Below, one piece after another: positions 12,390 through 62,579 of a DNA stretch of 64,000 bases. Under the pieces are notes generated by a model, which worked only from the letters and a program-made list of their open reading frames with translations, was not told the DNA's origin and searched no databases. The position numbers were made by a program, and so were the translations under genes. Position 1 is the first letter of the stretch; every line of letters starts with the position of its first letter. The stretch is from Candidatus Moraniibacteriota bacterium. Lineage in GTDB: Bacteria; Patescibacteriota; Minisyncoccia; Moranbacterales; UBA2206. The stretch spans positions 6,359-70,358 of the forward strand of contig JBAQUL010000014.1 of assembly GCA_049297495.1 (NCBI GenBank), in the 5' to 3' direction.

Positions 12390-12444
12390 TATGTTTAATT
12401 AAACTAATTAATCCCACCTCTAGACTTCTATCCCTAAATAAAGA

Positions 12445-12592
12445 TGTCATCCTGAGCGGAGTTCGTACTCGGACGCAGTCGAAGGATCTGCTTACGATAA
12501 TCCTAGTTTTCACGATTTATTACAAAACCTGCGATAACCTAGAGCAGATTCTTCGACTTCTCCGCCAGCTGGCGGATTCGCTCAGAATGACA
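12445..12592. repeat. MITE-like element family F1 (TGTCATCCTGAGCG...CGCTCAGAATGACA terminal inverted repeats), copy 1
   Basis: ~148 nt with 14-16-bp terminal inverted repeats and internal stems (cgaaggatct/agatccttcg; ccgccagctggcgg). Four copies at 12445, 14009, 44515 and 46982. Confidence 0.7.
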
Positions 12593-12614: not shown

Positions 12615-13979
12615 CTATTCCACAATAAACTTCCCTCGCACCATTCCCATCCAACAACTAAACGGGATTTCTCCAACCTTGTCCGGGGTAAAATTAACAA
12701 TATTATCACCAGAACTTAGGGCTTGCGAGATTCCCAAACTTGGAACAATGATTTTATTAGTACAACCTGTAATACTATCCCCTTTTATAACCCAGCGAAC
12801 CGGCACGCCTTTTTTCAGACGCAAAACATTTGGTGAAAAACCGGCGCTAGTTACATGCATCTCGACCAGTTGCTCAGTTGCGTCAGTTTTCACATTTTGT
12901 GACTGATTTTTCCCATCATTTTTTCCAGCGTTACTTGGGCGACTGAACAAATTTTCAGAAGCGCCAACTAAAGCTAGCCCGGAATTAAAAGTATAAAAGG
13001 CAAAAAGGACAATCAGCATCCCGGCCACTTTCTGAAATATAGCAGCATTTTTGCTTTTACTCCAAGCAGTTGTCACGCCGAGCGCGAGCAGTGACGGCAC
13101 AGTGCCAAGCGCAAAGAGAAGCATCCCCAAGCCCCCGCGCATAAAGCTACCAGACGCAATCGCCAGAATTTGCATACTCTGTGTGAAACCGCAAGGCAGA
13201 AAAAAGGTCATTACACCCAAGAGAAATGGCGCCGCCGGATTTTCTGACTTTTTTAGTTTGCCCCATGGGGAACTAAAAAATCTCGGCATCCGCATACCAA
13301 GGCTCGCAATATCAGGAAATAGTCCCAAAATATTGAGGCCTAAAATCGCAAGCACGATGGCAATGATTATGGTATAGATCGCGATAAAATTGCCACTAAT
13401 ATTTATCCCACCACCAATCGCGCCAAGTAGTCCACCGAGCACGAAAAAACCACCCAGTCTGCCGAAATGAAAAAATAGATTTGGCTTCACGGCGCCACTC
13501 AAAAATCCATTTTTCTCTCCTCGATATTTTTCCGAAAAAGCAATTACCACTGATCCGACCACCACCAAACAACTAGAAACAGAAGCAACGAGACCAATCA
13601 AAAACGCTGTGCCCAAATCAGCACCCGCTCCAGTCACGCCGATTTTTTGCCCAAGACTGGAATTTTCAAACAGTCTGAAAGCAACTATACCAAGAACGAC
13701 AAGGGCAACCGCCCAAAGCCAAGATTGCCAAGAACTTTTTTGAACTGGCCCAGCAGACGCACCTTCTTTTTCTTGCGATGCAACGTAACCAAATTTTTCC
13801 GCTATCTTTTTGACCTCGAAAAAATCCGGCTCGGCCTTATCATAATCCAGTTCCACAATGCCTTTTTTCCGATCCGCCCGAACGTGCAGAACACCGGGAA
13901 TATTCAAAAGCTCATCGTCAAGTAGCTTTTCGCAACTGACGCAGTGCATGCCTTTGATATAGATTATTTTTGTTTGCAT
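12615..13979 (-). CDS. HMA-domain / polytopic permease (TauE-like?) / C-terminal cupredoxin-like domain fusion protein; probable metal (Cu) handling
   Basis: N-terminal GMHCVSC HMA motif, about 8 TM helices, and a C-terminal beta domain ending FSCWMGMVRGKF (Cys/Met-rich cupredoxin-like). Start trimmed to MQTKIIYIKGMHC because the upstream extension enters an F1 repeat. Confidence 0.6.
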   Translation of the reverse strand: MQTKIIYIKGMHCVSCEKLLDDELLNIPGVLHVRADRKKGIVELDYDKAEPDFFEVKKIAEKFGYVASQEKEGASAGPVQKSSWQSWLWAVALVVLGIVAFRLFENSSLGQKIGVTGAGADLGTAFLIGLVASVSSCLVVVGSVVIAFSEKYRGEKNGFLSGAVKPNLFFHFGRLGGFFVLGGLLGAIGGGINISGNFIAIYTIIIAIVLAILGLNILGLFPDIASLGMRMPRFFSSPWGKLKKSENPAAPFLLGVMTFFLPCGFTQSMQILAIASGSFMRGGLGMLLFALGTVPSLLALGVTTAWSKSKNAAIFQKVAGMLIVLFAFYTFNSGLALVGASENLFSRPSNAGKNDGKNQSQNVKTDATEQLVEMHVTSAGFSPNVLRLKKGVPVRWVIKGDSITGCTNKIIVPSLGISQALSSGDNIVNFTPDKVGEIPFSCWMGMVRGKFIVE

Positions 13980-14008
13980 AATTTTATGATTACAAGACTT
14001 ACGCGCTT

Positions 14009-14168
14009 GAATTAGATTTGTCATCCTGAGCGAAGTCCTGTACTCAGGACGTAGCCGAAGGATCTACTAACCGTAACCCATGTCTTCCTATTTCATAACC
14101 AGACTTGAGATGATAGCAAGCAGATCCTTCGACTTCTCCGCCAGCTGGCGGATTCGCTCAGGATGACA
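14009..14168. repeat. MITE-like element family F1, copy 2
   Basis: tgtcatcctgagcgaagtcctgtactcaggac...ccgccagctggcggattcgctcaggatgaca, with perfect 16-bp terminal inverted repeats. Confidence 0.7.
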
Positions 14169-26272: not shown

Positions 26273-26320
26273 AATATTTTATAACTTATTTTTATCGGTT
26301 AAGATAATTTTTGTTTATAT

Positions 26321-26467
26321 CCCCTTCTCCATTAGGGAGAAGGTGGCTGAAAGCCGGATGAGGGTGCTATGAGTAACATCAATGCTTTTAATTTAACTAT
26401 TAGCTTTATCTGCATAGGTAAAAACCCTCACCTGCCCTACGGGCATCCTCTCCCGGAGGGAGAAGAG
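26321..26467. repeat. Structured palindromic element family F2 (CCCCTTCTCCATTAGGGAGAAGG...CTCCCGGAGGGAGAAGAG), copy A
   Basis: ~150 nt between scpA and scpB with conserved hairpins and a covarying long-range stem. Other copies at 41512-41673 and 60180-60333. Confidence 0.7.
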
Positions 26468-27182: not shown

Positions 27183-27255
27183 AAATTATATACTAACAAT
27201 TTAACTCTCCCATTTTAGCATCTTTTCTCCAATACTGCCAAATCACCAATTTTTT

Positions 27256-30200
27256 CTAAACCACAATTTTCCTCTTCACAACTCCTCTCTCTTTTAAGGT
27301 AATAGTCTCTTCTTTTTGAGCAAACTGACTGGCATTAGTCATGGTCTTTAGAATGTAGTCTCCCGAGTTAGCCAGTAGAATGTAGCGTCCCTGTTCATCA
27401 GAGATAGTTCTAGCTATCAGTTGTTTGGTGTTACGATCAAGGAGAGAGATGGCGCTAAAAGGTTGCTTGGTGCCTTCTTTGTTGACGACATAGCCCCACT
27501 TGGAACCAAGATGAGTCATATTTCTGATGATGACATTGGCCAGGTAGATGAGTGTGATGAAAAGATTGAGACTAGTGGGGTTGGAGAGCGTGATGAAAAT
27601 GGTGAGAGCAAAACCCAAATAGAAGATAGCAGCAAAGAAGAAGTAGGAGAGGCGCTTGTTTTTGAAAGATTTCTGGTCGGGGTTAGTAGCCTTGAGACAG
27701 AGGTCATAGCAGATGATGCCGGAATCAGTGAAAGTCAGCTTTTTCTTTTCCGGATCAGTCAGGACATTTGTGTAGTAAGTTTTAGCGTCGATGTCATGAC
27801 TGTCAATGACATAGCCACTCTTTTTGATTTCTAGTTGGTATTCGCCCTTGGGAACGAGGAAGTAGTAGCTGCCAAGCTTATCAGTTAATTTTGTTTCTTT
27901 GGTTTTTCCAGTCGCAGCTTCAATCACACTGATGGAAACGAGCGGGATCGGGTCGCCGGTGGCGGAGTCATAGACCGTACCCCACATCTTTTTCTTTTTG
28001 GTTTTAGAAAGCAAACCGAAGAGTCCCAGGGGAAGATCGCGCAGAAGAATAGTCATATTTCGTTTTGCTGCGCGGGCTTGATAGAGTAGCGGAAGGAGTG
28101 AGGTGGAAAGTGCCATGGCCGCGACCGCTTGCGCTTCAGCTTCTTGCTCCTCGGGAATAGCGGGGAAAAGCGGAGGGGCGATGCGCTCCTCTCTATCTTC
28201 GATATTCGCAAGGATCCGTTTCTTTTCTTCTTGCTTTTTTGTTTCAGCTAATTTCTCTTCCTCCTGCTTAGTGGTTTCGGGCGTTGTTGGTTCATTGCTT
28301 GGGTTAGGCGGGATCAGCTCTTCAATTGGCACCGTATTCAATGCAAAGTTCGCCACAGCAAAGATGTTTTTGGTGATACTGGTATCAGTTCTGGGGTTTT
28401 GGACGTTGCCATCACTCCAATCAGTGAAGTGGTAGTTGTTGTCAGGGATAGCGGTGATTGAGGTACCACTCTCCCCTGCTTTTACAGTTTGATTAGCATT
28501 GCCGGAAAGGGTGCCGTTGCCTCCGGAAGTATAGGTGAGGGTGTAGGTTGTGTCTGTGGGAGTTTCTGTGTCGGAAGCAAAGTTGGCGGTGAGAGTGAGA
28601 TCAGCTTTGATGTCAGTATCAGTTCTCACCCTTTCTGTTTTGCCGTCACTCCAGTTAGTGAAGTGATAGTTAGTAGCAGGGAGAGCTTCGACTTCTTCTC
28701 CATCTTCTTTGTATTTCACTGTTTGATTAGCATCTCCTTGGATTGAACCATTGGAGTTGGCATTGTATTTAAGGGTGTATTCCTCTTTTTCAAATTCAGC
28801 GGTGACAGAGAGGTCTTCTTGGATGTTTTTGTCTTTTCTGGGATTACTGTCTTTTCCGTCACTCCATTCTTTGAAGAGATAACCGGTGTTAGGTTTAGCT
28901 TCCACTTCTTTGCCATCTTCGTCATAGCTGATAGTTTGGGTTTCGTCGCCATCAATTTCTCCGTTGCCGTCATCTCGGTATCTTAGAGTGAAAGTGTTTT
29001 TTTCGAAGTTGGCGGTGAGGGTGAGGTCAGTTTGGACGTTGGTATCGGTTCTAGTGGCTGACTCCAGATTGTCACTCCAGCTTACGAAGTGGTAGCCGGT
29101 GTTGGGAGTGGCGGTGACCGGTGTGCCATTGCTGCCGATGGTGACAGTCTGGGGAGTGGTGCCAGTGATGGTGCCGCCTGGGCCGGCGGTGTAGGTGAGG
29201 AGCAGCGCATTGCTAAAGTTGGCACTAACGTTTAGATTGGCTTGGACGTTAGTATCAGTTCTCGGGTTTTGCGTAGAGTTGTCACTCCAGTTCACAAAAC
29301 GATAACCAGCTATGGGAACGGCCGTGATTTGGGTGCCACTTTCTCCATGAGTAACAGTTTGAGAAGTGGTTCCGGTGAGTGATCCATTGGCATTGGCGGA
29401 ATATGTGAGAGTGTAAGAGTTGATGGCAAAGTTAGCGGTGTAGGTCGCATCCGCTTGGATATTGGTATCAGTCCTAGGGTTGTCGATTGAGTTGTCAGAC
29501 CAATCAGTGAAGTGGTAACCAACATTGGGGGTCGCTGTAACTTCCGTACCATCATCACCATAACTGACATTTTGTGGGTTGGTGCCGGTAATGGTTCCGC
29601 CTGAACCGGCGATGTAAGTGAGGATAAGGGCGTTACTGAAGTTAGCGGTAACAGTGATATTGTTTGTTACGTTAGTATCTGTCCTGGGGTTTTCTGTTGA
29701 ATTATCTGACCAGTTGACGAAGTGATAGCCGCTTGCTGGGACAGCAGTAATTTGGGTACCATCTGCTCCATGGTTCACGGTTTGCGGTGTCGTGCCAGTG
29801 AGTGATCCGTTAGCGTCGGCACTGTACATGAGAGTGTAAGAGTTGATCGCAAAGTTAGCAGTGACGGTGAGATTACTTGTTATGTTGGTATCAGTTCTGG
29901 GGTTGTCGGTGGAATTATCAGACCAATCGACAAAGTGGTAGCCGGTGTTGGGGACAGCGCTGACAGCTGTTCCGTCTGATCCGTGATCTATGGTTTGCGG
30001 GGTAGTGCCTGAGATTGTTCCGTTGGTGTCATGATTGTAGGTTAAAGTATAAGTGTCGATGGCAAAACTAGCCACTACGGTGATGTCTCCGGTAACATTG
30101 GTGTCAGTGCGAGCTGGATTGGTGCTGCCGCCATCCCAAGAGACAAAGTGCCAGCCGGGGTTCGGGATAGCAATGACTTCGGTTCCATTGCCTCCATAAT

Positions 30201-33200
30201 TGACTGTTTGGGGAGTGGTACCAGAGATAGTGCCTCCTGTTCCAGGATGGTACGTTAAGGTGTAGGCGTTAATGGCAAAGTTGGCAGTGACGGTAAGATT
30301 GCCAGTCACATTAGTGTCAGTTCTCGGGTTGTCAGTGGAACTGTCGGACCAGTTGACAAAATGATAGTTGGAGTTTGGGACAGCGCTGACAGCTGTTCCG
30401 TCTGCACCATCATTAACTATTTGAGGTGATGTACCAGAAACTCCTCCGTTCGCTCCGGCAGTATAAGTAAGAGTGTGGGTTATGACTGCGTTTTCGGCAA
30501 AGTTAGCAGTGACGGTAATATTGCTGGTAACATTAGTATCGATTCGAGGATTATCAGTATTGCTATCAGACCAATCAACAAAGTGATAGCCCACAGCAGG
30601 AACAGCAACAACTTCTGATCCGTCACCATTTTCAATCACAGATTGAGGAGTTGTTCCTGAGATTGATCCATTAGCTCCGGCAGTATAGGTCAAGGTGTAA
30701 CTCGTAACGCTTCCGAAAGTCCAAAGCTCTCTCCCATTATCACCATTATCAGCCACAAATATTGGCACATTATTAAGATTGACAATCCTGGCATTAGCAT
30801 TTACACCATCACCTCCAACAAAAATATCTTCCACCATCTTCGTTCCAACAGTTGTTCCATCTGATTCCCAAAGTTCGGACCCATGACTCGAAGAACCATC
30901 AGTTGCCTTAAAATACATGATACCATCAACATTGGTCAGCTTACTGGGTTCAGTGGCACCCGCTCCAGAATAGATATCTTTAACTAGGACTGTTCCGCTT
31001 TCAGTTCCATCAGTTTTCCAAAGTTTTCCCGGGTACTGGCCAGCACTAAAATAGAGGCTAACATCGGAAGCGGCATAATTATTTGGGTTGGAAAATGCTC
31101 CCACTGTAATATCCTTTACCAGAACCGTTCCACTTGCGGTGCCATTTGATTTCCAAAGTTCATTGCTATGAACACCATCATCTGCAGCAAAATACACCTC
31201 ATTATTATACACAAAGAGATTATATCCAAAGGACCCATTAGACCCGTCGTAAATATCTTTAACCATTACCGTTCCACCCACTGTACCATCTGATTTCCAA
31301 AGTTCACTGCCATTAATACCATTGCTAGCATTGAAATACAGCGCATTACCGATACTCACTAATGTTTCTATGCCAGAACCATTCGAACCCGGATAAATAT
31401 CCTTGACCATCGTTGTGCCATCACTTGTTCCGTCCGAACGCCACAACTCAGGACCGTTGACATTGTCATTGGCCTTGAAATATAAAATGCCATTCATGCT
31501 GGTGAGCAGATATGGATAGATTGAATCATCTCCCACTCCCGGATAAATATTTTTCACCATCTCCGTTCCACTCTCAGTACCATCTGATTTCCAAAGCTCA
31601 TAGCCATTACCATCATTAGCGGAAAAATAGAAAATGCCATTCACGTCGCCCCTAGCGCTCGCCCAATAATACAAGCCATCTTGCGTACCAATATAAATAT
31701 CTTTCACGAGCACTGTTCCACTTTCTGTGCCGTCTGTTTTCCACAATTCTCTCCCATGCACACCGTCATCAGCCGCAAAATATAGCGTATCGCCCACAAC
31801 GTGGAAAAGACTAGGTGAAGCATAAATTGAATTCCCAAGATTAATATCTTTAACCATGGTAGTTCCAATAATTGTGCCGTCTGTTTTCCAAAGCTCATAG
31901 CCATGAATACCATCGTTAGCAGAAAAATATGTCTCCCCATTAAAGATAGTCAAGTTATCTGGGTATGCACTACCTTTTGTTAGATTCGTATCCCGCACAA
32001 GAACAGTTCCCCCACTTGTGCCATCTGTTTTCCAGGGCTCTTCACCATGATCACCATCACTAGCAGCGAAATACAGTGTTCCACCAGCATCAACCATGCG
32101 TGATGCCAATGAGCCATTAAATCCAGCGAAAATATCTTTCATCATCACTGTTCCCCCTGATGTACCGTTTGATTTCCAAAGCTCCTTCCCATGGACACCA
32201 TCACTGGCCTGAAAATACAATTCTCCCCCAAATCCTCCTGTAATTCTCATGTCACTATAGAAAACCAAAGAAACACCATCAGAAATACCTGGGTTAATGT
32301 CCTTAACCAAGTTAGTGCCAAGATTCGTTCCATCCGACCGCCAAAGCTCATTACCATCAGGACCATCATTGGCAAAGAAATATAATATACCACCAACGTT
32401 GGTCAAGAGACTGGGATAGGAGGAGCCACCAATAACACTGATATCTTTAACAATCGAAGCGCCACTACCATCAGCTTTCCATAACTCAGCACCATGAGAA
32501 TGATGTTGCTCATCAAAAGAATCATAATAATAATCTGTCGCTTGAAAATACAATGCGCCATTCATCGTCTTAAAATAACTCGGATCCGAACCAATCGCTC
32601 CCTCATAGATATCGCCAACTATTGTCGTGCCAGCGCTTGTTCCGTCCGATCTCCACACCTCATCACCAATCGCTCCCGTCCTGGCAACGAAATAGAAAAC
32701 ACCACCAACATTTTCCGCAACCTTAAAACCATTGTTCTTCGCATATCCATAAGTAATAGAATCAAGTCCGCTACTGCTTCCAGCATAAATATCTCTCACC
32801 ATCTCAGTTCCACTAGGCGTTCCATTAGATTTCCAAAGCTCATAACCATTAACACCATCATCTGCCCCAAAATACAAAATTCCGTTGACATCAGTCAGGC
32901 CAAGAATAAATCCACCTGTAGCGCTAGGGTTCGTGTCCTTCACGATCTCAGTTCCAATTTCCGTGCCATCAGATTTCCAAAGAGTGTCGTTACACGCCCA
33001 ATATAAAGATCCACCGCTCGCTACGGGATCTGAATGATCAGCGCAAACTTCAACGCCTGATTTCACCAATACCGTACCAGCTATCGTCCCATCAGATTTC
33101 CACAGTTGATCCTCTGACGCGAAAGTAAGCACTCCATAGAATGCAACTCCATTAACATCAGTTATGTCAATTCTGTCGCTATTCATAAAAGTACCCAGAA

Positions 33201-36200
33201 GCACAGTTCCATCGTGCGTTCCGTCAGAACCCCAAACTTGCATACTATTTCCCGATGTACCTTCCAGTGTGTCACCACCTTTCTCCGTGAAAAAAACCTT
33301 CCCGCCACTTCCTTCCATGCTCCAAATTGTTCCACCAGCATCCGTTGTCTTGTTGATATCAATCATGTACGGATCCCCGAGTATTCTTGTAAAATTAACT
33401 GTAACGGAAATATTGGAATTTATATCAGTGTCCGTTCTGGGATTCTGAGTGGATCCATCACTCCAATCAACAAAACGATAGCCTGCATCCGGAATTGCAG
33501 TTACGACCGTACCATCTCTTCCTGGATTAACTGATTGAGACAGATTGCCCGAAAGAGTCCCTCCGGCTTCTCCGGTATAGCTTAGAGTATAAATAATATT
33601 TGAAAAGGTAGCGGTTACATTAATATTGCCAGTAACGTTAATGTCGGTTCTGGGATTTTGAGTGGATCCATCACTCCAATCAACAAGATGATAGGTAGAA
33701 TCAGGAATTGCCTCAACTGCTGAACCGCTAGCACCATGATTAACAGTCTGTGCTGTTACTCCAGAAAGAGAACCATTGGCCGCAGCAGCATAATTCAACG
33801 AATAAACATTGATTGCAAAATTAGCGGTAACCGCAATATGATTTGTCACGTTCGTATCAGTTCGACTGGCCGTCATCACTCCGTCGCTCCAATCGACAAA
33901 ATGATAACCCGTATCGGAAACGGCAGTAACAGCAGAAGCATCATTACCATCATCAACTACCTGCGGAGAAACACCGGAAATTGTTCCGTTTAATCCGGCG
34001 GTATAGGTTAAAGTGTAGGGAGCAAAAAGAGCCGTGACAGTAATGTTATCCTGAACATTAGTATCGGTTCTTGGATTTTGAGTTGAGCCATCACTCCATC
34101 TCGTGAAATGATATGTCGAATCAGGACTTGCCGTAACCGCGCTACCATCTGCCTCATAGGCAACTGTCTGGGGAGTTGTACCACTAATAGAACCATGCAG
34201 TCCCGCGACATAAGTCAACGTTAAATTTTCTGGAGCAAAATTAGCAGTGACAGAAATATTATTCGTCACGTCCAGATCTGTTCTCGGATTTTGAGTGGAA
34301 CCATCGCTCCAACTGGCAAAATGATAATCTACGTCAGGAATCGCCGTGACCGCCGTTCCATTGGAACGGTAAGCGATAGTTTGAGAAGTTGCGCCAGAAA
34401 GTGTTCCATGCGCTCCTGCGGCATAGCTCAATGTGCGAGTATCATTTTGAAATTCTATCGTAACATCTGAAATTGAGGAGGCATTTCTTCCATCGGACAA
34501 AAGAAAAATTTTATATTGAACATATTGATCATCGGTCTTATCATTCTGAGTATCATCAATCAATTCATCCCCGACAGAATCAGTGAAGTATGTCGTTGAA
34601 CTGCAAGATCCCGCGACGCCATCATTCGGTCCACACCAAGGAGTCCAGTTCGCATTGTCCGGAGAAGTACGAAGCTGAAAATTAATATCAGAACCAGGAA
34701 GCAAAGTTTCATTCCAACGCAACTTTCCCATAATCGCCAGCAGAAGATTCGTGTTATAGCTTGAAGATTGAAGAATTTGATTAGTTGGATAATACTGATA
34801 ATTGAAAGTAATGTCGCTCAAGGTCGGCGTTGCAGTTGTGTCCGTAGTGGCTAAATTCGCACGATACTGAAAATATTGACTTGTACCAAGCGCTGAGATA
34901 CTTGCTCCAGTCGAAACATCAAGTTGCCAATCCGTCCAAGTCCCATCAGGCGTTCCAACACTTCCCGCACGAATATCAATCGTTAGGGTTGTGTTTGCCG
35001 GAGTAGTTTTGGTAAATGCAAGTGTGTCAGGAAAAGATTTTTGACCTGAATCTATGATGGATGAAATGAATGTTCCTGGGGTGCTAAATGTTATCGCGCC
35101 AAAATTAAAATTTGGTCCAGCATCCTTCACTTGAGTTGGTGTGAGTCTTTGTGTCGTGGTCATGTCGCCCAATTGACCATTACCATTATTCCCCCAACAA
35201 TAAACCGTATTGCCTGATTCAAAAGTACAAGAATGTGCATTGCCCGTTGTGACATCGCTAGCACCAGCTAGATTGCCAGATCCACCAACTCCCAAGACTT
35301 GAATTGGAGCTAACTTTTGAACAACAGTATTATCGCCTAGTTGACCATTGGTATTAAGCCCCCAGCAATATGCTGAACCGTCAGATATAGCCGCACATGA
35401 ATAGGCATAACCAGAAGCAATTCGACTAACACCAGCCAAAGTGCCAGCACCGCCCACACCCTTCACTTGGGTTGGGATAAGTCTTTGGGTCGTACTATTA
35501 TCACCCAATCTTCCGTTAGTGTTTAGCCCCCAACAATAAGCCGCACCGTCTGATTTGACAGCGCAAGTATGCGCATCTCCAGCTGAAATTTGATTAACAC
35601 CAGTTAGACTGCCCAATACCTGAACGGGAGCTGGCCTTTGTGTGGTAGAATTATCTCCCAATCGTCCGTTTAAGTTATATCCCCAGCAATAAGCAGTACC
35701 ATCAATTTTTGCGGCGCAAGTATGCGCCATTCCTGCAGAAACCCGACTGACACTTGTTAAGTTTCCCGCACCACCTACGCCCAAAACTTGGATAGGTGCG
35801 TTTCTCTGTGTCGTAGTATTATCTCCCAATTGACCAGTGCCATTACTTCCCCAACAAAAAACTGTATTATCCGTTTTAACAGCGCAAGTATGAAAACTTC
35901 CGGCTTCAACACTACTAACACCCGTCAAAAAGCCACTCCCACCAACTCCCTTCACTTGAACTGGCGTATATCTGATTGAAGTTGTATTGTCTCCAATCTG
36001 GCCACTACTATTACTTCCCCAGCAATAAACTGTGCCATCCGTTTTTAATGCGCAAGAGTGAGAATCTCCCGTTGCTACCTGACTAACGCTGGTTAAATAC
36101 CCAGTTCCGCCAACATCCACCACCTGAACTGGAGCAGATGAACCAGAAGATGAATTATTTCCCAGCTTGCCGCTACTGCCATCTCCCCAGCAATATGCCG

Positions 36201-39200
36201 AGCCATCTGATTTGGCAGCACAACTATGATATGGTCCTGCTGAAATCTGACTCGCGCTTGCGATATCTCCCACCGTTCGCACATATACCGGAGTAGATCT
36301 AGTTGTAACTGAAGTGTCTCCTAGCTGACCGTTGCTATTATATCCCCAACAATAAGCCAAACCATCAGATTTAAGCGCGCAAGTATGAAAAGTTCCCCCT
36401 GCAATTTGCCTGATGTCAGCCAAATTACCAACACCCCCGACGCCCAAAACTTGAACCGGAGTGGTTTTTATTACATTAGTACCATCCCCCAATTGATAAT
36501 AATTATTCCTCCCCCAACAAAAAGTGGAACCATCTGGTTTAACAGCACAAGTATGATATGCCCCCAGAGCTACCTTGCTGACACCTGTCAAAAATCCAGT
36601 TCCTCCCACACCTCTCACCTGAACCGGGGTCAATCGTCCCCAAGGACTCGACCCAACAGTCGTGCCATCTCCCAACTGACCATAATCATTTCCACCCCAA
36701 CAGAAAACCGATTCATCAGATTTGGTAACACAAGAGCTATTACCATTCGACTCTAATTGGGTAGCATCAGTTAAATATCCAACCCCGCCAACTCCCTTAG
36801 TTTGCACCGGGGTTAATGCTTGAATAGTAGAATTATCACCAAGTTGGCCATTACCATTGCCTCCCCAACAAAAAACAGTGCTATCAGACTTAAGCGCGCA
36901 AGCATGCTGATTTCCTGCCGAAATTCGACTCACGTCAGTCAAATTACCCGTTCCGCCAACACCTAGCACTTGCGTTGGTGTAAGCTTTCGCGCGACAGTA
37001 TTATCACCTAATTGACCAGTGCCATTATAGCCCCAGCAATAAACTGAACCATCGGATTTAAGGGCGCAAGTATGAGAACTTCTTGCAACAATCTGACTGA
37101 CTCCGGCCAAAGTATCAACTCCATCAACTCCTAATACTTGAACAGGAGCGGTTCTTTGCACCAGAGAATTATCTCCTAATTGTCCATTATTGTTTCCACC
37201 CCAGCAATAAACTGAACCGTCGGATTTAAGGGCGCACGTATGAGTATACCCTGCCGCAATTTGAACTATACTGGTCAAGTTTCCTGAGCCGCCCACACCA
37301 ACTACTTGTACAGGAACATATCTATCTCCAGTAGTATTGTCGCCCAAATAACCACTAGTATTACTCCCCCAACAAAAAACCGTGCCATCTGGTTTAAGAG
37401 CGCAAGTATGTGTATCGCCTTCAACCACCTGATTAACCGTACCTAAGAGACTTACAGCCGAATTACTACTTTGCGTATTAGAGTTAGTTCCCGCATTAAA
37501 ATCCGCATTAGTGGTTTGAATTTCTGAGCCACCTTTTGATTGAAGTAATAACTCTGTTGTCGCTGCAATATCGCCATCCTTGCTTGAATATTCAGTCCAA
37601 TTTTGGGCATTGCCGGCATGACTCGCAATATCGCTTGACACTCCTCCGATCCAACTAGTCTGCGTCCACGCTTCATGCAAATCATCAATACCGATTGAAA
37701 AATTAGCCGTAACATTAACGTCGCCAGTTATATTGATATCCGTCCTACTAGCTGAAGTTGCCCCATCGCTCCAATTAAAGAAATGATAACCAGTATCAGG
37801 AACTGCGACTACGGTTGAACCACTTGACCCATAATTAACAGTTTGTGGTGAAGTGCCAGTGAAAGTTCCGTTGGGACCGGCGGTGTATGTCAAGGTATGC
37901 GAGTTAATCGCAAAATTAGCGCTAACCGAAAGATTACTTATCACATCCGTGTCCGTTCTGGGATTTTGCGTTGAACTATCGCTCCAGTCGACAAAGTGAT
38001 AGCCCACACTAGGAACAGCTGTAACCGCAGAACCATCCGACCCACGATCGACTGTTTGCGGTGAAGTACCAGAAATTGTTCCATTAGCGCCTGCAACATA
38101 AGTCAATGTATAGGTATCGATTGCAAAATTTGCGGTAAAAGTATTGCTAACTTGAACGTTAGTGTCTGTTCTAGGATTTTGCGTTGAACTATCGCTCCAA
38201 TTAACAAAGTGATAGTTCGCGTTAGGAACAGCCGTAACAGCAGAACCATTACCATCAAAAATAATTGACTGAGAATAGTCGCCAACTATCGTTCCATTGG
38301 AATCTGCAACGTATGTTAACGTGTAAACATTGGAAAAATTAGCAGTCACATTGATATTGCTTGTCACATTAGTGTCTGTTCTAGGATTTTGAGTAGAACC
38401 ATCATTCCAATCTACAAAATAATATCCGCTATCAGGATTTGCGGTGACCGCCGTCCCGCTACCGCCATCGATAATAGTTTGAGGAGATGTCCCAGAAATA
38501 GATCCATTAGATCCAGCCGTGTACGTTAAAGTTCGAAACACAACAGTAGTGTCCAGCGACATTAGTTCAGATCCATTCACGCCGTTATTTCCTGAAAAAA
38601 ACAAGTATTGATCTTTTTTCGTAAAGTTTTCTATCTCGGAGACGGTATTATCAACCTGTATTGTATTGGAACCGTCCGTCTTCCAAATATGACTGTCCCA
38701 CCAGTTCCCGGTATCAAAATATGAGAAATATAAAACATCATTCATGTCAATCATTTCATCACAACCCGCAGTGCTTGTACCACCCATCACAAGCGTAGCG
38801 CCTCCGCTATCAATTTTCCAAAGACCATTATTGCCAACACTGGAATTATAGATAAGCGTATATAGAGCGCCATTTGAGATGACATTGCTGTCTGGATATG
38901 AGTCACCCACCCCCAAGTTAACATCTTCCAATAGGACTGTTCCGCCTTCGGTACCATCAGATTTCCAAAGCTCTCCACCATGAACACCGTCATCAGCAAA
39001 AAAATACAGATTACCATCAAATACTACAAAATCACAGGGATCGCCGTCACTCGTTCCTGGATTAATATCCTTTACCAGTACAGATCCTGATGCCGTGCCA
39101 TCAGATTTCCAAAGTTCATATCCATGCTCAGCATCAGTGGCTTCGAAAAATAGACTTCCATTAAAGACGATAAAATTATAAGGATCAAGACTGGAATCAC

Positions 39201-39870
39201 CACGCAAGACGGTACCAATTTCTGTACCATCTGTTATCCACATTTTCCACTCACCTGTATCATCAGAAGCATTAAAATAAATAAGTCCATTGAACTCAAC
39301 AAAGCTATTCGCATAGCTGTCTCCACTTCCCAGGTTGATATCTTTCAGCATTACTGTGCCAATTTCTGTGCCATCGGACTTCCAAGGTTCAACTCCGTGC
39401 ACACCATCGTTTGCAAGAAAATAAAGAACATCATTAATATTACTGATATTATAAATATCAGCATTGCCAATGCCCGGATTAATATCTTTCACCATTACTG
39501 TCCCGGCTGCAGTACCATCTGACTTCCAAAGTTCATTTCCATGAGTACCATCATCATTAACGGTGAAATAGATTAGGTTGCCCACCGCAAAACTCAGATG
39601 AGGAACGGAATCATCAATGCCCGGATTGATATCTTTCACCATTACTGTTCCGGCTGCAGTACCATCTGACTTCCAAAGTTCTTGTCCGCTAACACCATCA
39701 TTAGCTACGAGATACACCAAATCTCCGACACGAAGAGAATCGGAGATTTGACCGCCATCTGCTCCTGCATAAATATCTTTGACAAGCACTGGACTAGCTG
39801 CACGGACATTCCCTGCACCCAAGAATATGGTACTACAAACCAAACTAAAAAGAAGAACTTTGTATTTCAT
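27256..39870 (-). CDS. Giant (~4200 aa) secreted/membrane-anchored multi-repeat surface protein with ELWxxDGT repeats, Listeria-Bacteroides (Flg_new) repeats, an RCC1 double propeller, and C-terminal TM plus carboxypeptidase-regulatory-like domains
   Basis: Single uninterrupted 12.7-kb ORF (the track gives 27256..39951; start placed at MKYKVLLFSLV, a signal peptide). See the finding for the domain map. Numerous antisense ORFs inside it are ignored. Confidence 0.85.
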   Translation of the reverse strand: MKYKVLLFSLVCSTIFLGAGNVRAASPVLVKDIYAGADGGQISDSLRVGDLVYLVANDGVSGQELWKSDGTAAGTVMVKDINPGIDDSVPHLSFAVGNLIYFTVNDDGTHGNELWKSDGTAAGTVMVKDINPGIGNADIYNISNINDVLYFLANDGVHGVEPWKSDGTEIGTVMLKDINLGSGDSYANSFVEFNGLIYFNASDDTGEWKMWITDGTEIGTVLRGDSSLDPYNFIVFNGSLFFEATDAEHGYELWKSDGTASGSVLVKDINPGTSDGDPCDFVVFDGNLYFFADDGVHGGELWKSDGTEGGTVLLEDVNLGVGDSYPDSNVISNGALYTLIYNSSVGNNGLWKIDSGGATLVMGGTSTAGCDEMIDMNDVLYFSYFDTGNWWDSHIWKTDGSNTIQVDNTVSEIENFTKKDQYLFFSGNNGVNGSELMSLDTTVVFRTLTYTAGSNGSISGTSPQTIIDGGSGTAVTANPDSGYYFVDWNDGSTQNPRTDTNVTSNINVTANFSNVYTLTYVADSNGTIVGDYSQSIIFDGNGSAVTAVPNANYHFVNWSDSSTQNPRTDTNVQVSNTFTANFAIDTYTLTYVAGANGTISGTSPQTVDRGSDGSAVTAVPSVGYHFVDWSDSSTQNPRTDTDVISNLSVSANFAINSHTLTYTAGPNGTFTGTSPQTVNYGSSGSTVVAVPDTGYHFFNWSDGATSASRTDINITGDVNVTANFSIGIDDLHEAWTQTSWIGGVSSDIASHAGNAQNWTEYSSKDGDIAATTELLLQSKGGSEIQTTNADFNAGTNSNTQSSNSAVSLLGTVNQVVEGDTHTCALKPDGTVFCWGSNTSGYLGDNTTGDRYVPVQVVGVGGSGNLTSIVQIAAGYTHTCALKSDGSVYCWGGNNNGQLGDNSLVQRTAPVQVLGVDGVDTLAGVSQIVARSSHTCALKSDGSVYCWGYNGTGQLGDNTVARKLTPTQVLGVGGTGNLTDVSRISAGNQHACALKSDSTVFCWGGNGNGQLGDNSTIQALTPVQTKGVGGVGYLTDATQLESNGNSSCVTKSDESVFCWGGNDYGQLGDGTTVGSSPWGRLTPVQVRGVGGTGFLTGVSKVALGAYHTCAVKPDGSTFCWGRNNYYQLGDGTNVIKTTPVQVLGVGGVGNLADIRQIAGGTFHTCALKSDGLAYCWGYNSNGQLGDTSVTTRSTPVYVRTVGDIASASQISAGPYHSCAAKSDGSAYCWGDGSSGKLGNNSSSGSSAPVQVVDVGGTGYLTSVSQVATGDSHSCALKTDGTVYCWGSNSSGQIGDNTTSIRYTPVQVKGVGGSGFLTGVSSVEAGSFHTCAVKTDNTVFCWGSNGTGQLGDNTTTQRNAPIQVLGVGGAGNLTSVSRVSAGMAHTCAAKIDGTAYCWGYNLNGRLGDNSTTQRPAPVQVLGSLTGVNQISAGDAHTCAVKSDGAAYCWGLNTNGRLGDNSTTQRLIPTQVKGVGGAGTLAGVSRIASGYAYSCAAISDGSAYCWGLNTNGQLGDNTVVQKLAPIQVLGVGGSGNLAGASDVTTGNAHSCTFESGNTVYCWGNNGNGQLGDMTTTQRLTPTQVKDAGPNFNFGAITFSTPGTFISSIIDSGQKSFPDTLAFTKTTPANTTLTIDIRAGSVGTPDGTWTDWQLDVSTGASISALGTSQYFQYRANLATTDTTATPTLSDITFNYQYYPTNQILQSSSYNTNLLLAIMGKLRWNETLLPGSDINFQLRTSPDNANWTPWCGPNDGVAGSCSSTTYFTDSVGDELIDDTQNDKTDDQYVQYKIFLLSDGRNASSISDVTIEFQNDTRTLSYAAGAHGTLSGATSQTIAYRSNGTAVTAIPDVDYHFASWSDGSTQNPRTDLDVTNNISVTANFAPENLTLTYVAGLHGSISGTTPQTVAYEADGSAVTASPDSTYHFTRWSDGSTQNPRTDTNVQDNITVTALFAPYTLTYTAGLNGTISGVSPQVVDDGNDASAVTAVSDTGYHFVDWSDGVMTASRTDTNVTNHIAVTANFAINVYSLNYAAAANGSLSGVTAQTVNHGASGSAVEAIPDSTYHLVDWSDGSTQNPRTDINVTGNINVTATFSNIIYTLSYTGEAGGTLSGNLSQSVNPGRDGTVVTAIPDAGYRFVDWSDGSTQNPRTDTDINSNISVTVNFTRILGDPYMIDINKTTDAGGTIWSMEGSGGKVFFTEKGGDTLEGTSGNSMQVWGSDGTHDGTVLLGTFMNSDRIDITDVNGVAFYGVLTFASEDQLWKSDGTIAGTVLVKSGVEVCADHSDPVASGGSLYWACNDTLWKSDGTEIGTEIVKDTNPSATGGFILGLTDVNGILYFGADDGVNGYELWKSNGTPSGTEMVRDIYAGSSSGLDSITYGYAKNNGFKVAENVGGVFYFVARTGAIGDEVWRSDGTSAGTTIVGDIYEGAIGSDPSYFKTMNGALYFQATDYYYDSFDEQHHSHGAELWKADGSGASIVKDISVIGGSSYPSLLTNVGGILYFFANDGPDGNELWRSDGTNLGTNLVKDINPGISDGVSLVFYSDMRITGGFGGELYFQASDGVHGKELWKSNGTSGGTVMMKDIFAGFNGSLASRMVDAGGTLYFAASDGDHGEEPWKTDGTSGGTVLVRDTNLTKGSAYPDNLTIFNGETYFSANDGIHGYELWKTDGTIIGTTMVKDINLGNSIYASPSLFHVVGDTLYFAADDGVHGRELWKTDGTESGTVLVKDIYIGTQDGLYYWASARGDVNGIFYFSANDGNGYELWKSDGTESGTEMVKNIYPGVGDDSIYPYLLTSMNGILYFKANDNVNGPELWRSDGTSDGTTMVKDIYPGSNGSGIETLVSIGNALYFNASNGINGSELWKSDGTVGGTVMVKDIYDGSNGSFGYNLFVYNNEVYFAADDGVHSNELWKSNGTASGTVLVKDITVGAFSNPNNYAASDVSLYFSAGQYPGKLWKTDGTESGTVLVKDIYSGAGATEPSKLTNVDGIMYFKATDGSSSHGSELWESDGTTVGTKMVEDIFVGGDGVNANARIVNLNNVPIFVADNGDNGRELWTFGSVTSYTLTYTAGANGSISGTTPQSVIENGDGSEVVAVPAVGYHFVDWSDSNTDNPRIDTNVTSNITVTANFAENAVITHTLTYTAGANGGVSGTSPQIVNDGADGTAVSAVPNSNYHFVNWSDSSTDNPRTDTNVTGNLTVTANFAINAYTLTYHPGTGGTISGTTPQTVNYGGNGTEVIAIPNPGWHFVSWDGGSTNPARTDTNVTGDITVVASFAIDTYTLTYNHDTNGTISGTTPQTIDHGSDGTAVSAVPNTGYHFVDWSDNSTDNPRTDTNITSNLTVTANFAINSYTLMYSADANGSLTGTTPQTVNHGADGTQITAVPASGYHFVNWSDNSTENPRTDTNVTNNITVTANFSNALILTYIAGSGGTITGTNPQNVSYGDDGTEVTATPNVGYHFTDWSDNSIDNPRTDTNIQADATYTANFAINSYTLTYSANANGSLTGTTSQTVTHGESGTQITAVPIAGYRFVNWSDNSTQNPRTDTNVQANLNVSANFSNALLLTYTAGPGGTITGTTPQTVTIGSNGTPVTATPNTGYHFVSWSDNLESATRTDTNVQTDLTLTANFEKNTFTLRYRDDGNGEIDGDETQTISYDEDGKEVEAKPNTGYLFKEWSDGKDSNPRKDKNIQEDLSVTAEFEKEEYTLKYNANSNGSIQGDANQTVKYKEDGEEVEALPATNYHFTNWSDGKTERVRTDTDIKADLTLTANFASDTETPTDTTYTLTYTSGGNGTLSGNANQTVKAGESGTSITAIPDNNYHFTDWSDGNVQNPRTDTSITKNIFAVANFALNTVPIEELIPPNPSNEPTTPETTKQEEEKLAETKKQEEKKRILANIEDREERIAPPLFPAIPEEQEAEAQAVAAMALSTSLLPLLYQARAAKRNMTILLRDLPLGLFGLLSKTKKKKMWGTVYDSATGDPIPLVSISVIEAATGKTKETKLTDKLGSYYFLVPKGEYQLEIKKSGYVIDSHDIDAKTYYTNVLTDPEKKKLTFTDSGIICYDLCLKATNPDQKSFKNKRLSYFFFAAIFYLGFALTIFITLSNPTSLNLFITLIYLANVIIRNMTHLGSKWGYVVNKEGTKQPFSAISLLDRNTKQLIARTISDEQGRYILLANSGDYILKTMTNASQFAQKEETITLKERGVVKRKIVV
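35150..37420 (-). repeat. ~14 tandem RCC1 repeats (CWGxNxxGQLGD) inside the giant protein gene (approximate bounds)
   Basis: Repeated CALKSDGSVYCWGxNxNGQLGDNT units read from the minus-strand translation. Confidence 0.7.
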
Positions 39871-40295
39871 CCTATTAAAAGATTTTATCTGACTATTTAT
39901 TTGATTATTTTTTTTAAAACTCTCCGTCTCACATTCATCCGACACCAACATGACGGAAATTTACTCAGAGCCGCCCCTGAAATTTCACTCTAATAATTCT
40001 CAGGCTACATTTAACTAATCTCACTCTAGACATGCATATTTTCAGATTTCAGCTTCAACCCTAATTTTCTTCAACCATTCTTCTTACTTGCTCTACTGTA
40101 TCACAGTTATCAAAAGATAAACACCCCTCAAATAAACAATATTGATTATTACTAAAATAACCAGACCATCATTAAAATCAACACTCCTTCTCCGCACAAC
40201 TCTCACATGAATCATAGCACGGCTAGCGCTTTTTTTGAAAATACAAAACAAACCCGTCACTATTCCCACAATAAGTCAAATCATTAATAGCTTCG

Positions 40296-41501
40296 TTAAC
40301 TTTGGATTGTCTGGCGCCTATTTTTTCTCACTATTTTGTTTTCCGACAAATAAAAAGCTGGAACCAAAGCAGAAAAGACCACTAAGGCCGATAAAATAAA
40401 AATGACAGAGAGGGGCAAGAACAATAAAATCACAAAAGAAAGGCTAGCTGCCAAGATATAGCCGACCGGCATCGCCGTACGAAAAAAACCAATAAGATCA
40501 ACGTCATCACCATCAATTCGCTTATAAAAGTATGAATCGCGTAAAATTTCCACCATCGCCGCCCCAATTCTTGTCAAAAGCAGAACCAGCGACCAAACAA
40601 GAACGCTTGGTGAATTAGTTAAAAACACTAGAATAGCAGAAAAAGCCATGATAAAAAGGGCAAAAAACAATAGTTTTTTTTCTCCCATTTTTTTATCAGC
40701 GAGAAATCCCATTGGATATTGCAAGACCACAAAAGGCAAAAGCATTACGGAAAAAATAATACCAATCTGATCCCAGTTCAACCCCAAATCCATAAGATAA
40801 ATGGGCATATAAATTATCATCAATGCAAAAAAGAACTCCAAAACAAAAGAAATGTAATAGATATACAAAACATTCTTCCGCTTGTAAACTTTCCTTAATA
40901 AATCAATAACAGAAATGTCCGTACTTGTTTTCCCATTCGTATCCCGGAGCTTAAGCAGGGCATAAAAAAAGACTAAAATATTAAATATTAAAAGAAAAAG
41001 GAATATACCGGAAAAATCAAATCTTCCCAAGAGTCGCGTCGAAACAAACGGTCCCAAAAGAAACCCCGCATTTAAAATCGTTAGATGCTTTCCGCGAATC
41101 CTTCCCGACTCCTTGTCGCAAGAGAAAGACTCCAAAATTGTATCAAGACTCACCCACTCTAATCCAGAAGATATCACGTAAAGCATCAATACAAAGATGC
41201 CCCAGCTTGATGGGTGCGAATTAGTCAGAAAAATAAGACTGATTATTTTAAATACCAAAACAAGCAAAAAAACACTAGTTTTCCCTAGTGTTCGCGCTAG
41301 TTTATGCATATTTAAAAGAATCAGGAGTAAAATTGAATACGCAATAAAATAAAAACCACCAACATTCTCCGTTCCAGAGGCTTCCTTAAAATAGGAAGAC
41401 ATCACATAAATCAAAACGGCTTGAGAAAATCCCAAAAAAAAGGAAACATAACCGATGGTTTTTGTTTTTTTTCGATCTAAATGTTCTTTGTGTTTTGGCA
41501 T
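40296..41501 (-). CDS. MFS transporter
   Basis: 12 TM. Start placed at MPKHKEHL because the longer ORF (to 41570) runs into an F2 repeat. Confidence 0.7.
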   Translation of the reverse strand: MPKHKEHLDRKKTKTIGYVSFFLGFSQAVLIYVMSSYFKEASGTENVGGFYFIAYSILLLILLNMHKLARTLGKTSVFLLVLVFKIISLIFLTNSHPSSWGIFVLMLYVISSGLEWVSLDTILESFSCDKESGRIRGKHLTILNAGFLLGPFVSTRLLGRFDFSGIFLFLLIFNILVFFYALLKLRDTNGKTSTDISVIDLLRKVYKRKNVLYIYYISFVLEFFFALMIIYMPIYLMDLGLNWDQIGIIFSVMLLPFVVLQYPMGFLADKKMGEKKLLFFALFIMAFSAILVFLTNSPSVLVWSLVLLLTRIGAAMVEILRDSYFYKRIDGDDVDLIGFFRTAMPVGYILAASLSFVILLFLPLSVIFILSALVVFSALVPAFYLSENKIVRKNRRQTIQS

Positions 41502-41511
41502 TGTAGTAGCG

Positions 41512-41673
41512 TCCCCTTCGCCCTTAGGGAGAAGGTGGCCGAAAGCCGGATGAGGGAGGGAGCTCACCATGAAAAACTAGTTTTTTTATTTTTATTTAAT
41601 ATTATTCTTTTCCTATAGCCTCCTCCCTCACCTGTCACGAGTACGTGACATCCGCTCCCTAAGGGAGAAGAGG
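41512..41673. repeat. Structured palindromic element family F2, copy B
   Basis: tccccttcgcccttagggagaaggtggccgaaagccggatgagggaggga...cctcctccctcacctgtcacgagtacgtgacatccgctccctaagggagaagagg. Confidence 0.7.
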
Positions 41674-60061: not shown

Positions 60062-60179
60062 CTATTTTTAACCAAAAATCCTGTCACTTAGGCAGGATTT
60101 TTCTTTTTGTCTAAATGGTGGTAAGCTAGGAATATAAGAAGCGCCAAAGCTTACAATCCGGAAAAGTCTTTATTTATTT

Positions 60180-60333
60180 CCCCTTCTCCATTAGGGAGAA
60201 GGTGGCCAAAGGCCGGATGAGGGCAAGGGTGTTATATTGAGCAAAAACGAAGCTAGTTTAGATTATTCCTAATATATAGCCCTTGCCCTCACCTGTCACG
60301 TGCTCGCGACATCCTCTCCCGAAGGGCGAGGAG
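60180..60333. repeat. Structured palindromic element family F2, copy C (upstream of dnaX)
   Basis: ccccttctccattagggagaaggtggccaaaggccggatgagggcaagggtg...cccttgccctcacctgtcacgtgctcgcgacatcctctcccgaagggcgaggag. Confidence 0.7.
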
Positions 60334-62130: not shown

Positions 62131-62205
62131 GTGGGGAGTAGCCAAGTGGTAAGGCACCCCGCCTCGGCGGGGCATGCGAAGGTTCGAATTCTACAGCCCC
62201 AACAT
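62131..62205 (+). pseudogene. tRNA-like degenerate copy (5' half identical to tRNA-Gln; aberrant anticodon and T arms)
   Basis: The 5' portion TGGGGAGTAGCCAAGTGGTAAGGCA is identical to the tRNA at 62490. The anticodon arm ccccg-cctcgg-cgggg has a 6-nt loop, and the T-stem and acceptor 3' strand pair poorly. Confidence 0.4.
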
Positions 62206-62489: not shown

Positions 62490-62561
62490 TGGGGAGTAGC
62501 CAAGTGGTAAGGCAGGGGCCTTTGAAGCCCCCATGCGAAGGTCCGAATCCTTCCTCCCCAA
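62490..62561 (+). tRNA. tRNA-Gln (anticodon UUG)
   Basis: Manual fold: acceptor TGGGGAG/CTCCCCA (U1:A72), D-arm GCC-AAGTGGTAA-GGC, anticodon arm GGGGC-CTTTGAA-GCCCC, variable CATGC, T-arm GAAGG-TCCGAAT-CCTTC, discriminator A. 72 nt. Confidence 0.8.
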
Positions 62562-62579
62562 CCTTGTGTGTAATATCAA

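Follow-up and report, generated by a model that had tools for sequence, protein, structure and literature searches.

A giant modular protein with a conserved two-sandwich C-terminal anchor, a candidate adhesin, encoded in a Candidatus Moraniibacteriota genome

Here, we describe a single, intact gene for a protein of about 4200 amino acids (aa) in a 64,000-nucleotide (nt) stretch of a Candidatus Moraniibacteriota genome (assembly GCA_049297495.1, contig JBAQUL010000014.1, positions 6,359 to 70,358 of the forward strand), and we propose that its product is a Sec-exported, C-terminally membrane-anchored giant binding fibril with an adhesin-like role. We regard this interpretation as probable, though with a good deal of room for doubt. 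It is based on the protein opening with a signal peptide, consisting for most of its length of three catalogued repeat families (ELWxxDGT, Flg_new_2 and RCC1), and ending in a conserved module of ~290 residues, here called the anchor, that terminates a large and otherwise diverse set of proteins. The whole stretch is referred to as the window; positions are counted from its first letter and residues from the first codon of the open reading frame (ORF).

Gene structure and export signal

On the minus strand, 27256..39951 forms one ORF of 4231 codons, stop included in the coordinates, with no internal stop. The true start is likely to be M28 at 39870, which gives a coding sequence (CDS) at 27256-39870 and a product of 4204 aa. 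We favour M28 because a canonical signal peptide opens there and because an orthologous fragment on contig L010 begins at the equivalent Met, directly downstream of an in-frame TAA. A preliminary description of the window, made from the letters and their ORFs alone, had called a single 12.6-kb gene for a ~4200-aa protein; the uninterrupted frame and the 4204 residues counted from the start at 39870 agree with it, although the ORF itself extends further, to 39951.

The N-terminal hydropathy peak lies at aa 31-49, as would be expected for export by the Sec pathway. The ectodomain is strongly acidic (net charge ~-240) and the anchor basic (~+16), and the protein contains 98 N-x-S/T sequons. The intact frame, signal peptide, acidic repeat ectodomain and basic C-terminal transmembrane module together bear out the earlier suggestion of one gene for a secreted, membrane-anchored modular protein.

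Domain organisation

Module borders were set with hidden Markov models (HMMs) built from the protein's own repeats, and the families were checked against the curated models of Pfam and NCBIfam (Table 1). The NCBIfam model TIGR04534 (ELWxxDGT) scored 1126.6 bits against a cut-off of 65, over 22 stretches; the motif itself gave 24 regular-expression matches and our own HMM 25 repeats, with the consensus ELWKSDGTxxGTVxVKDINxG...NGxLYFxAxDGxxG. Among Pfam models, PF18998 (Flg_new_2) reached 705.8 bits (cut-off 23.6) over 20 stretches, PF09479 157.5 bits (cut-off 27), PF00415 (RCC1) 421.6 bits (cut-off 21.7) over 14 stretches, PF25390 (RCC1-like domain) 529.2 bits (cut-off 150), and PF13715 (CarbopepD_reg_2) 36.5 bits (cut-off 32.2) at aa 3991-4059. 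The Flg_new_2 domains, of ~70 aa each, fall by our own HMM into three blocks of 4, 5 and 11. A profile of the ELWxxDGT repeat found nothing significant in the PDB, and for aa 1626-1837 there is no significant match in Pfam or, by phmmer, in the PDB; searches of a word index with this region and with the anchor profile returned few relatives or none. The ELWxxDGT arrays may adopt a beta-propeller-like fold. The linker ahead of the anchor differs in both length and sequence in the ortholog on contig L007. No other ORF of the window carries the anchor or any of the three repeat families.

Table 1. Features of the giant gene and its surroundings, in window coordinates
Feature	Coordinates	Strand	Basis or remark
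Whole ORF	27256..39951	-	4231 codons; probable CDS 27256-39870
Sec-type signal peptide MKYKVLLFSLVCSTIFLGAGNVRA, predicted cleavage before AS; aa 28-51	39799..39870	-	Sequence, hydropathy, conserved in ortholog L010
ELWxxDGT array 1, aa 53-470; 8 clear ~48-aa repeats and a degenerate one at aa 421	38542..39795	-	TIGR04534, own HMM, regular expression
Flg_new_2 (divergent InlB B-repeat) x4, aa 472-753	37693..38538	-	PF18998, own HMM
93-aa spacer without family, aa 754-846, AWTQTSWIGG...; opens RCC1 cassette	37414..37692	-	No Pfam match; colinear with P0035 N-terminus
RCC1 x14, contiguous, aa 847-1625	35077..37413	-	PF00415 x14, PF25390
Two tandem beta-rich ~100-aa domains without family, aa 1626-1837; close RCC1 cassette	34441..35076	-	Conserved in P0035
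Flg_new_2 x5, aa 1838-2189	33385..34440	-	PF18998, own HMM
ELWxxDGT array 2, aa 2190-3073; 17 motif-bearing repeats and a degenerate last one	30733..33384	-	TIGR04534, own HMM, regular expression
Flg_new_2 x11, aa 3084-3871; putative membrane-proximal stalk	28339..30702	-	PF18998, own HMM; C-rich third positions begin here
Pro/Thr/Glu/Lys-rich linker, aa 3872-3940; 57% P+T+E+K	28132..28338	-	Composition
Anchor module, aa 3941-4231	27259..28131	-	PF13715, hydropathy, homologs, alignment A1, AlphaFold2, Foldseek, charge
Anchor, hydrophobic helix A	28081-28131	-	Hydropathy
Anchor, amphipathic or hydrophobic helix B	28006-28056	-	Followed by Lys/Arg cluster
Anchor, transthyretin-like sandwich 1	27688-27981	-	PF13715, AlphaFold2
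Anchor, transmembrane hairpin with invariant P-x3-N turn	27511-27666	-	Hydropathy, A1
Anchor, sandwich 2	27262-27495	-	AlphaFold2
13.1-kb segment, gene and 5' region, without counterpart at the L009 MFS-scpA junction	27241..40386	.	Synteny comparison

The order of modules that had been described from N to C terminus (ELWxxDGT, Flg_new, RCC1, linker, membrane module) is confirmed by the curated models, with borders agreeing to within tens of nt, and TIGR04534, PF09479 and PF00415, the models named in that description for these families, are all above their cut-offs. Its counts of four and ~11 Flg_new domains and ~14 RCC1 repeats match those of our HMMs. Three entries need adjustment: the middle Flg block is present but has 5 domains, not 6; the second ELWxxDGT region is present but has 17-18 repeats, not ~16; and the unassigned stretch of ~250 aa is real but is 212 aa long and is accompanied by the further 93-aa family-less spacer before the RCC1 array.

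The C-terminal anchor

In an exhaustive phmmer search of representative protein clusters, the last 331 residues matched 3,401 clusters at E <= 1e-3; a threshold of E <= 1e-10 left 1,760 of these, and one of E <= 1e-30 left 55. The matching proteins range from 243 to 5920 aa, and the anchor is always C-terminal (a median of 4 residues follows the match, among 92 full-length matches). What stands ahead of it varies: only 3 of the 150 top relatives have any of the repeats of the giant protein, and the ectodomains that we sampled include SBBP, DUF5122 and Rax2 propellers, filamin, invasin D3, PKD, fn3, F5/8-C, TSP3, TIG, DUF2341 and cadherin domains. In one relative, P0003, the anchor is 64% identical and is preceded by at least nine Flg domains. 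Named organisms with the anchor are Moranbacteria / Moraniibacteriota, a Patescibacteria single-cell genome, Saccharibacteria and Yanofskybacteria; anchor genes also occur in two metagenome-assembled genomes (MAGs) labelled Bdellovibrionales, an unchecked label.

Independent members of the family align over 250-290 residues at 28-66% identity. Our broad alignment, A1, has 18 invariant positions in 20 sequences of ~30-35% identity, and its motifs are an R/K cluster followed by WGxVYD..TGxPIP, a hairpin with invariant P-x3-N and Tyr, and KWGxV...ARTIxDExGRY. Residues 3941-4231 of the giant protein have all of these motifs, a match by construction, since the giant protein was the query. A genome scan used a narrower alignment, A2, as A1 is too diverse for that purpose, and returned 5 loci.

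That this region combines transmembrane helices with two carboxypeptidase-regulatory-like sandwiches, as the preliminary description had it, is upheld for the first sandwich by the PF13715 match and for the second by an AlphaFold2 model and by homologous anchors with two PF13620 stretches each. The model, computed with A1, has a pLDDT of 81. In its own numbering, the first sandwich takes up residues 56-153 and the second 218-295; two helices, at 161-188 and at 192-212, stand between them, and the long helix at the N-terminus is of low confidence. Foldseek returned single-domain matches only (transthyretin, carboxypeptidase D domain II and SdrD B), with TM-scores of 0.26 or below. We found no model in Pfam or NCBIfam that covers the full unit and no solved structure of it, and our literature search found no paper on the unit or on CarboxypepD_reg domains as anchors in Patescibacteria.

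How might the module sit in the membrane? Across the family, net charge averages +3.7 before sandwich 1, +1.8 before the hairpin and +1.7 after it, and the hairpin turn is neutral, with a fixed length of five residues. Under the positive-inside rule, this distribution of Lys and Arg favours a single membrane crossing that would leave the two sandwiches cytoplasmic and the turn of the hairpin on the outer side. Alternatively, the module may form two hairpins that leave both sandwiches outside. Sortase-dependent attachment does not apply: the only match to LP.[TSA][GAN] lies at aa 3757, inside a Flg repeat, and no NCBIfam sorting-signal model matches. Nor is the protein an RTX adhesin, as it contains no GGxGxDxUx motifs, has a Sec-type signal peptide at its N-terminus, and no type I secretion system genes adjoin its gene.

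The RCC1 array and its cassette

Each of the 14 RCC1 repeats contains exactly two Cys, 10 residues apart (HTC...YCWG), so that 28 of the protein's 38 Cys sit in the RCC1 blades. This suggests one disulfide per blade and a fold outside the cytoplasm. Among PDB sequences, UVR8 aligns end to end with aa 1183-1549, a span of seven repeats (E = 8e-43), and all solved RCC1 relatives are 7-bladed propellers of ~370 residues. We therefore depart from the earlier notion of a 14-blade RCC1 propeller: by this comparison, the 14 repeats probably form two 7-bladed propellers rather than one 14-blade ring. No period-7 duplication signal is found among the identities of the repeats.

The array is part of a larger unit. 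A 1647-aa protein, P0035, is colinear with aa ~760-1835 of the giant protein, at 41% identity over 1120 residues, and the match takes in the spacer, all 14 RCC1 repeats and both family-less domains; after the cassette, P0035 has a linker region of its own and then the same anchor. From this colinearity, the spacer, the 14 repeats and the two-domain close are an evolutionary unit, in which 14 is a conserved number, and one that agrees better with two propellers of seven blades than with a single ring.

A codon-usage break within the gene

The gene is mosaic in composition. At third codon positions, the frequencies of G, C and T (G3, C3 and T3) are 0.17, 0.16 and 0.46 over aa 28-3130, and 0.11, 0.40 and 0.29 over aa 3180-4231; the drop in G3 begins with the residue that opens the last Flg block. 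The change is seen among domains of one family: the first two Flg blocks use AAT 49 and AAC 9 times for Asn and ATT 19 and ATC 7 times for Ile, as against 27 and 51, and 5 and 23, in the third. C3 exceeds 0.34 in no other gene of the window, and the lone positive GC skew at 28-30 kb is due to the C-rich third positions of stalk and anchor.

The coincidence of the switch with a domain boundary, and its presence in an independent ortholog, led us to reject it as the mark of a chimeric join. The ortholog on L007 has the same signature (C3 0.41, G3 0.10) next to scpA, scpB and carboxypeptidase genes of normal composition, so the switch is real and predates the divergence of these populations. We read the stalk and anchor as a cassette with a separate history. 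On a more speculative level, the anchor could be a Patescibacteria device for anchoring or sorting surface proteins, in which one helix would cross the membrane, the two sandwiches, on the cytoplasmic side of the transmembrane hairpin, would couple giant extracellular fibrils to an intracellular partner or tag them for a sorting machinery, and stalk-and-anchor cassettes would be swapped by recombination. We put this forward tentatively, as an idea with rather less than even prospects. Cassette swapping would explain both the codon switch conserved in the ortholog and the finding that P0035 combines the RCC1 cassette with this anchor.

The window as a whole is also asymmetric between strands. 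GC skew is negative along almost the whole plus strand; in minus-strand genes G3 exceeds C3 (~0.24 versus 0.15), and in plus-strand genes C3 exceeds G3. Between 0.3 and 44.5 kb, almost every gene is encoded on the minus strand, probably a matter of co-orientation with replication.

Divergence of the repeats and contig breaks

The internal repeats had been described as highly similar at the nucleotide level, and the locus consequently as prone to length variation and assembly collapse. The similarity is not there. Mean pairwise nucleotide identity between units is 63.1% for RCC1, 60.6% for Flg and 62.7% for ELWxxDGT, with a maximum of 74%; between repeat units, protein identity averages ~54%. 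Segments found by self-BLASTN share 62-70% identity, those of at least 100 nt reaching 76% at most, and Tandem Repeats Finder at its default score reports no array in the gene. The sole close pair measures 87 nt at 90% identity (39468-39554 and 39615-39701) and contains the longest exact repeat, of 32 nt (39503-39534 and 39650-39681). The repeats are thus old, diverged and under purifying selection, not recently homogenised, and a collapse through nucleotide similarity is unlikely.

Part of the expectation does hold, in that short-read contigs from the same or related populations stop inside the gene. The Logan contig L001 ends at 39685, and the 32-nt exact repeat lies 4 nt away; L010 ends in the first ELWxxDGT repeat; L007 begins inside Flg domain 10; and the contigs ERZ1426753 and ERZ1426830 (ENA) end ~3,590 codons into the gene. 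The gene is hard for short-read assemblers. We found no evidence of repeat-number slippage, the plasticity seen being that of whole modules and of the whole gene. Genes of 3594 and 3585 aa at the same locus were considered as length variants and discarded, as both are cut by contig ends (18158 - 7403 = 10755 nt = 3585 codons) and their lengths are lower bounds.

Genomic context and accessory status

The neighbours of the giant gene are all housekeeping genes: downstream scpA/scpB, a DD-carboxypeptidase and a GT4 gene; upstream an MFS gene, AspRS, a response regulator and RF1/PrmC, with a mraZ-mraW-PBP-Mur cluster further on. No sortase, secretion system or partner gene is found near it. The flanking proteins are identical to proteins of NCBI MAGs of Candidatus Moraniibacteriota, an uncultured lineage of the Patescibacteria, and identical flanks are also present in the Logan run SRR28062512. 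The accession numbers of four deposited records give the order scpB, scpA, one protein, MFS, AspRS, which fits a single annotated CDS between scpA and MFS.

A related Moranbacteria contig (L009; GCA_026396175.1) aligns colinearly with the window (75-81% nucleotide identity), and in it scpA follows the MFS gene after 67 nt, the giant gene being absent. The giant gene is therefore accessory. Contigs from related populations support its placement from both sides. Two carry at least 3585 and at least 3594 codons of the gene after MFS, and L010 joins MFS to the same signal peptide and first ELWxxDGT repeat. L007, with an anchor 88% identical to that of the giant protein, independently joins Flg domains 10-11, the linker and the anchor to scpA/scpB and then the carboxypeptidase gene.

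Possible function and alternatives

In light of this architecture, what might the protein do? We favour a mechanism in which it would be exported by the Sec pathway and retained in the cytoplasmic membrane by its C-terminal module, the ~290-aa anchor of a membrane-crossing helix, two transthyretin-like sandwiches and a transmembrane hairpin. The Pro/Thr/Glu/Lys-rich linker could cross the wall, and the eleven InlB-B-repeat-type domains would form a stalk that holds the arrays off the membrane. Going outward, 17-18 ELWxxDGT repeats, 14 RCC1 repeats and 8-9 ELWxxDGT repeats would follow, probably as beta-propellers, separated by B-repeat stalks of five and four domains. The protein would thus most likely act as a long acidic fibril whose several propeller faces bind proteins or glycans of a partner cell or of some other surface. 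The candidate adhesin of the preliminary description is reasonable by analogy: proteins with the same anchor carry cadherin, invasin D3, filamin, PKD, fn3, F5/8-C, TIG and SBBP domains, and giant proteins with a proposed attachment role have a precedent in Vampirococcus (see below).

Several observations weigh against an adhesive fibril. The protein contains no catalytic, lectin or toxin domain that would point to a specific ligand. The ELWxxDGT arrays and ~300 family-less residues have no solved relatives by sequence, and an AlphaFold2 run on aa 798-1667 from the single sequence, without an alignment, gave a pLDDT of only 30. In the anchor model, a pTM of 0.43 makes the relative placement of the domains unreliable; the topology of the anchor is ambiguous, and the cytoplasmic sandwiches to which the positive-inside rule points would be unusual for the fold. 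The gene index has no entry for the exact product, in either its M1 or its M28 form. Finally, a related species does without the gene, which is thus not essential.

It could be argued that the gene is an artefact, an assembly chimera or collapsed array joining paralogous repeat genes, given that short-read contigs repeatedly stop inside it, that codon preference changes sharply where the last Flg block begins and that the gene index lacks the exact full-length product. We consider this very improbable. The frame is open across 12.7 kb, repeats that are only ~61-63% identical in DNA are unlikely to collapse, and the switch falls on a domain boundary and recurs in L007, which joins the anchor to scpA. 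Independent contigs join the 5' end to MFS with at least 3585-3594 codons, the numbering in the four deposited records allows for one CDS and no more, and the 14 RCC1 repeats are reproduced in P0035.

Of the functional alternatives, a structural envelope or coat protein (S-layer-like or a glycocalyx scaffold) that shapes or protects the surface would accord with a very large, acidic and repetitive ectodomain rich in sequons, with a gene placed among envelope and division genes (DD-carboxypeptidase, GT4, mraZ/mraW/PBP/Mur), and with an anchor common to many different surface proteins. We think it unlikely, since a core envelope component should be conserved and this gene is absent from a related syntenic genome; moreover, long stalks that bear propeller arrays are what binding proteins typically have, and neither Pfam nor NCBIfam finds an S-layer homology or self-assembly domain. 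Somewhat less likely again, in our estimation, is a transmembrane receptor, in which ligand binding by the propellers would be passed through the anchor to cytoplasmic transthyretin-like domains and an intracellular partner. The Lys/Arg clusters beside both sandwiches, cytoplasmic by the positive-inside rule, and a conservation of the anchor (the 18 invariant positions of A1) beyond the need of a passive one are what such a receptor would lead one to expect. However, Pfam and NCBIfam find no kinase, cyclase or other output domain; the nearby response regulator lies two unrelated genes away and is kept where the giant gene is absent; transthyretin-like, CarboxypepD_reg and SdrD-B-type domains are usually extracellular; and the topology of the anchor is ambiguous.

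Other features of the window

A GC-rich, structured intergenic repeat of ~160 nt occurs at 41512-41673 and 60161-60333 and, in part, at 26298-26364. The same element is found in L009 (5958-6125, 13436-13609 and 18477-18654), with 72-80% identity between the genomes; one copy, in the scpA-scpB spacer, is syntenic and the others are not. Its predicted structure comprises two hairpins, a long-range helix round an AT-rich variable centre and two more hairpins, with 39 pairs, 5 of which show compensatory changes. The element, which has no match among the families of Rfam, may be a small mobile repeat, a structured RNA or a terminator.

A second segment without counterpart in L009, 14617-23271 (8.6 kb), carries genes for three EamA-family transporters, a nucleoside deoxyribosyltransferase-like protein, an S51 peptidase, an HD protein, a class-III aminotransferase, two family-less proteins and an SDH-type protease. 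At 12615-14024 (minus strand), a gene for a fusion of HMA, DsbD_2 membrane and cupredoxin domains adjoins that for a heavy-metal P-type ATPase (10198-12513, minus strand); the pair is conserved in L009, there beside a CsoR-type (PF02583) repressor gene. Lastly, 62132-62202 (plus strand) scores 30.8 bits with the Rfam tRNA model (cut-off 29) and is uncalled by ARAGORN; this tRNA candidate lies ~290 nt upstream of a clear tRNA-Gln at 62490-62563.

Relation to known proteins and significance

The closest precedent in kind comes from the Candidate Phyla Radiation (CPR), where the ten longest proteins of Candidatus Vampirococcus lugosii, of 1392-4163 aa and predicted to be in the membrane, have been proposed as host-attachment fibres (PMC8080830). 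The protein described here is alike in size class, Patescibacteria/CPR host, predicted membrane localisation and the possession of protein-interaction repeats. Compared by description, the repeats themselves differ, being WD40, TPR, PKD, integrin, fibronectin and DUF11 in Vampirococcus and ELWxxDGT, Flg_new_2 and RCC1 here, and no shared C-terminal anchor is described for the Vampirococcus proteins (PMC8080830).

In overall plan, the protein resembles the wall-anchored adhesins of Gram-positive bacteria, namely MSCRAMMs such as SdrD and the internalins, in which a signal peptide, distal binding domains and a stalk of small beta domains are likewise followed by a Pro-rich linker that spans the wall and by an anchor at the C-terminus. 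The parallel extends to parts: the fold of the SdrD B domains resembles the anchor sandwiches, and the internalin B-repeat family (PF18998) is that of the stalk domains. Unlike them, the giant protein has no LPXTG, leucine-rich repeats or DEv-IgG binding domains, a 290-aa membrane module taking the place of the usual anchor.

The RCC1 repeats are clearly recognised as belonging to the same family as the UVR8, HERC2 RLD and RCC1 propellers. Giant proteins with RCC1 repeats along their whole length have been reported from Oscillospiraceae, without transmembrane anchors (bioRxiv 10.1101/2023.11.21.568195), whereas the 14 repeats of the giant protein belong, with the family-less domains on either side, to a fixed cassette, and the protein around it draws on several families and ends in a transmembrane anchor. 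TIGR04534 is defined by its repeat alone, which the giant protein matches with 22-25 copies, and our literature search found no paper that mentions ELWxxDGT. The PF13620 and PF13715 models describe a single sandwich, whereas the unit of helix, Lys/Arg cluster, sandwich, hairpin and sandwich goes beyond them. No other protein that we retrieved combines ELWxxDGT, Flg_new_2, RCC1 and the anchor.

Thus, every repeat family of the ectodomain is already catalogued, and giant membrane proteins are known in CPR genomes; what goes beyond this is an unnamed and widespread two-sandwich anchor, the reuse of a cassette on that anchor and a codon-usage break within the gene.

To our knowledge, little is understood of how the ultra-small CPR/Patescibacteria attach to and recognise partner cells beyond type IV pili. 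Against this background, the giant gene is one more candidate for an attachment fibre, and unsurprising by itself. The anchor, from the breadth of its family, offers a way of cataloguing the surface proteins of CPR bacteria by sequence and raises the testable question of how these are anchored or sorted. Together, the presence or absence of the gene and its mosaic codon usage suggest an exchange of whole modules, which is of relevance to host range.

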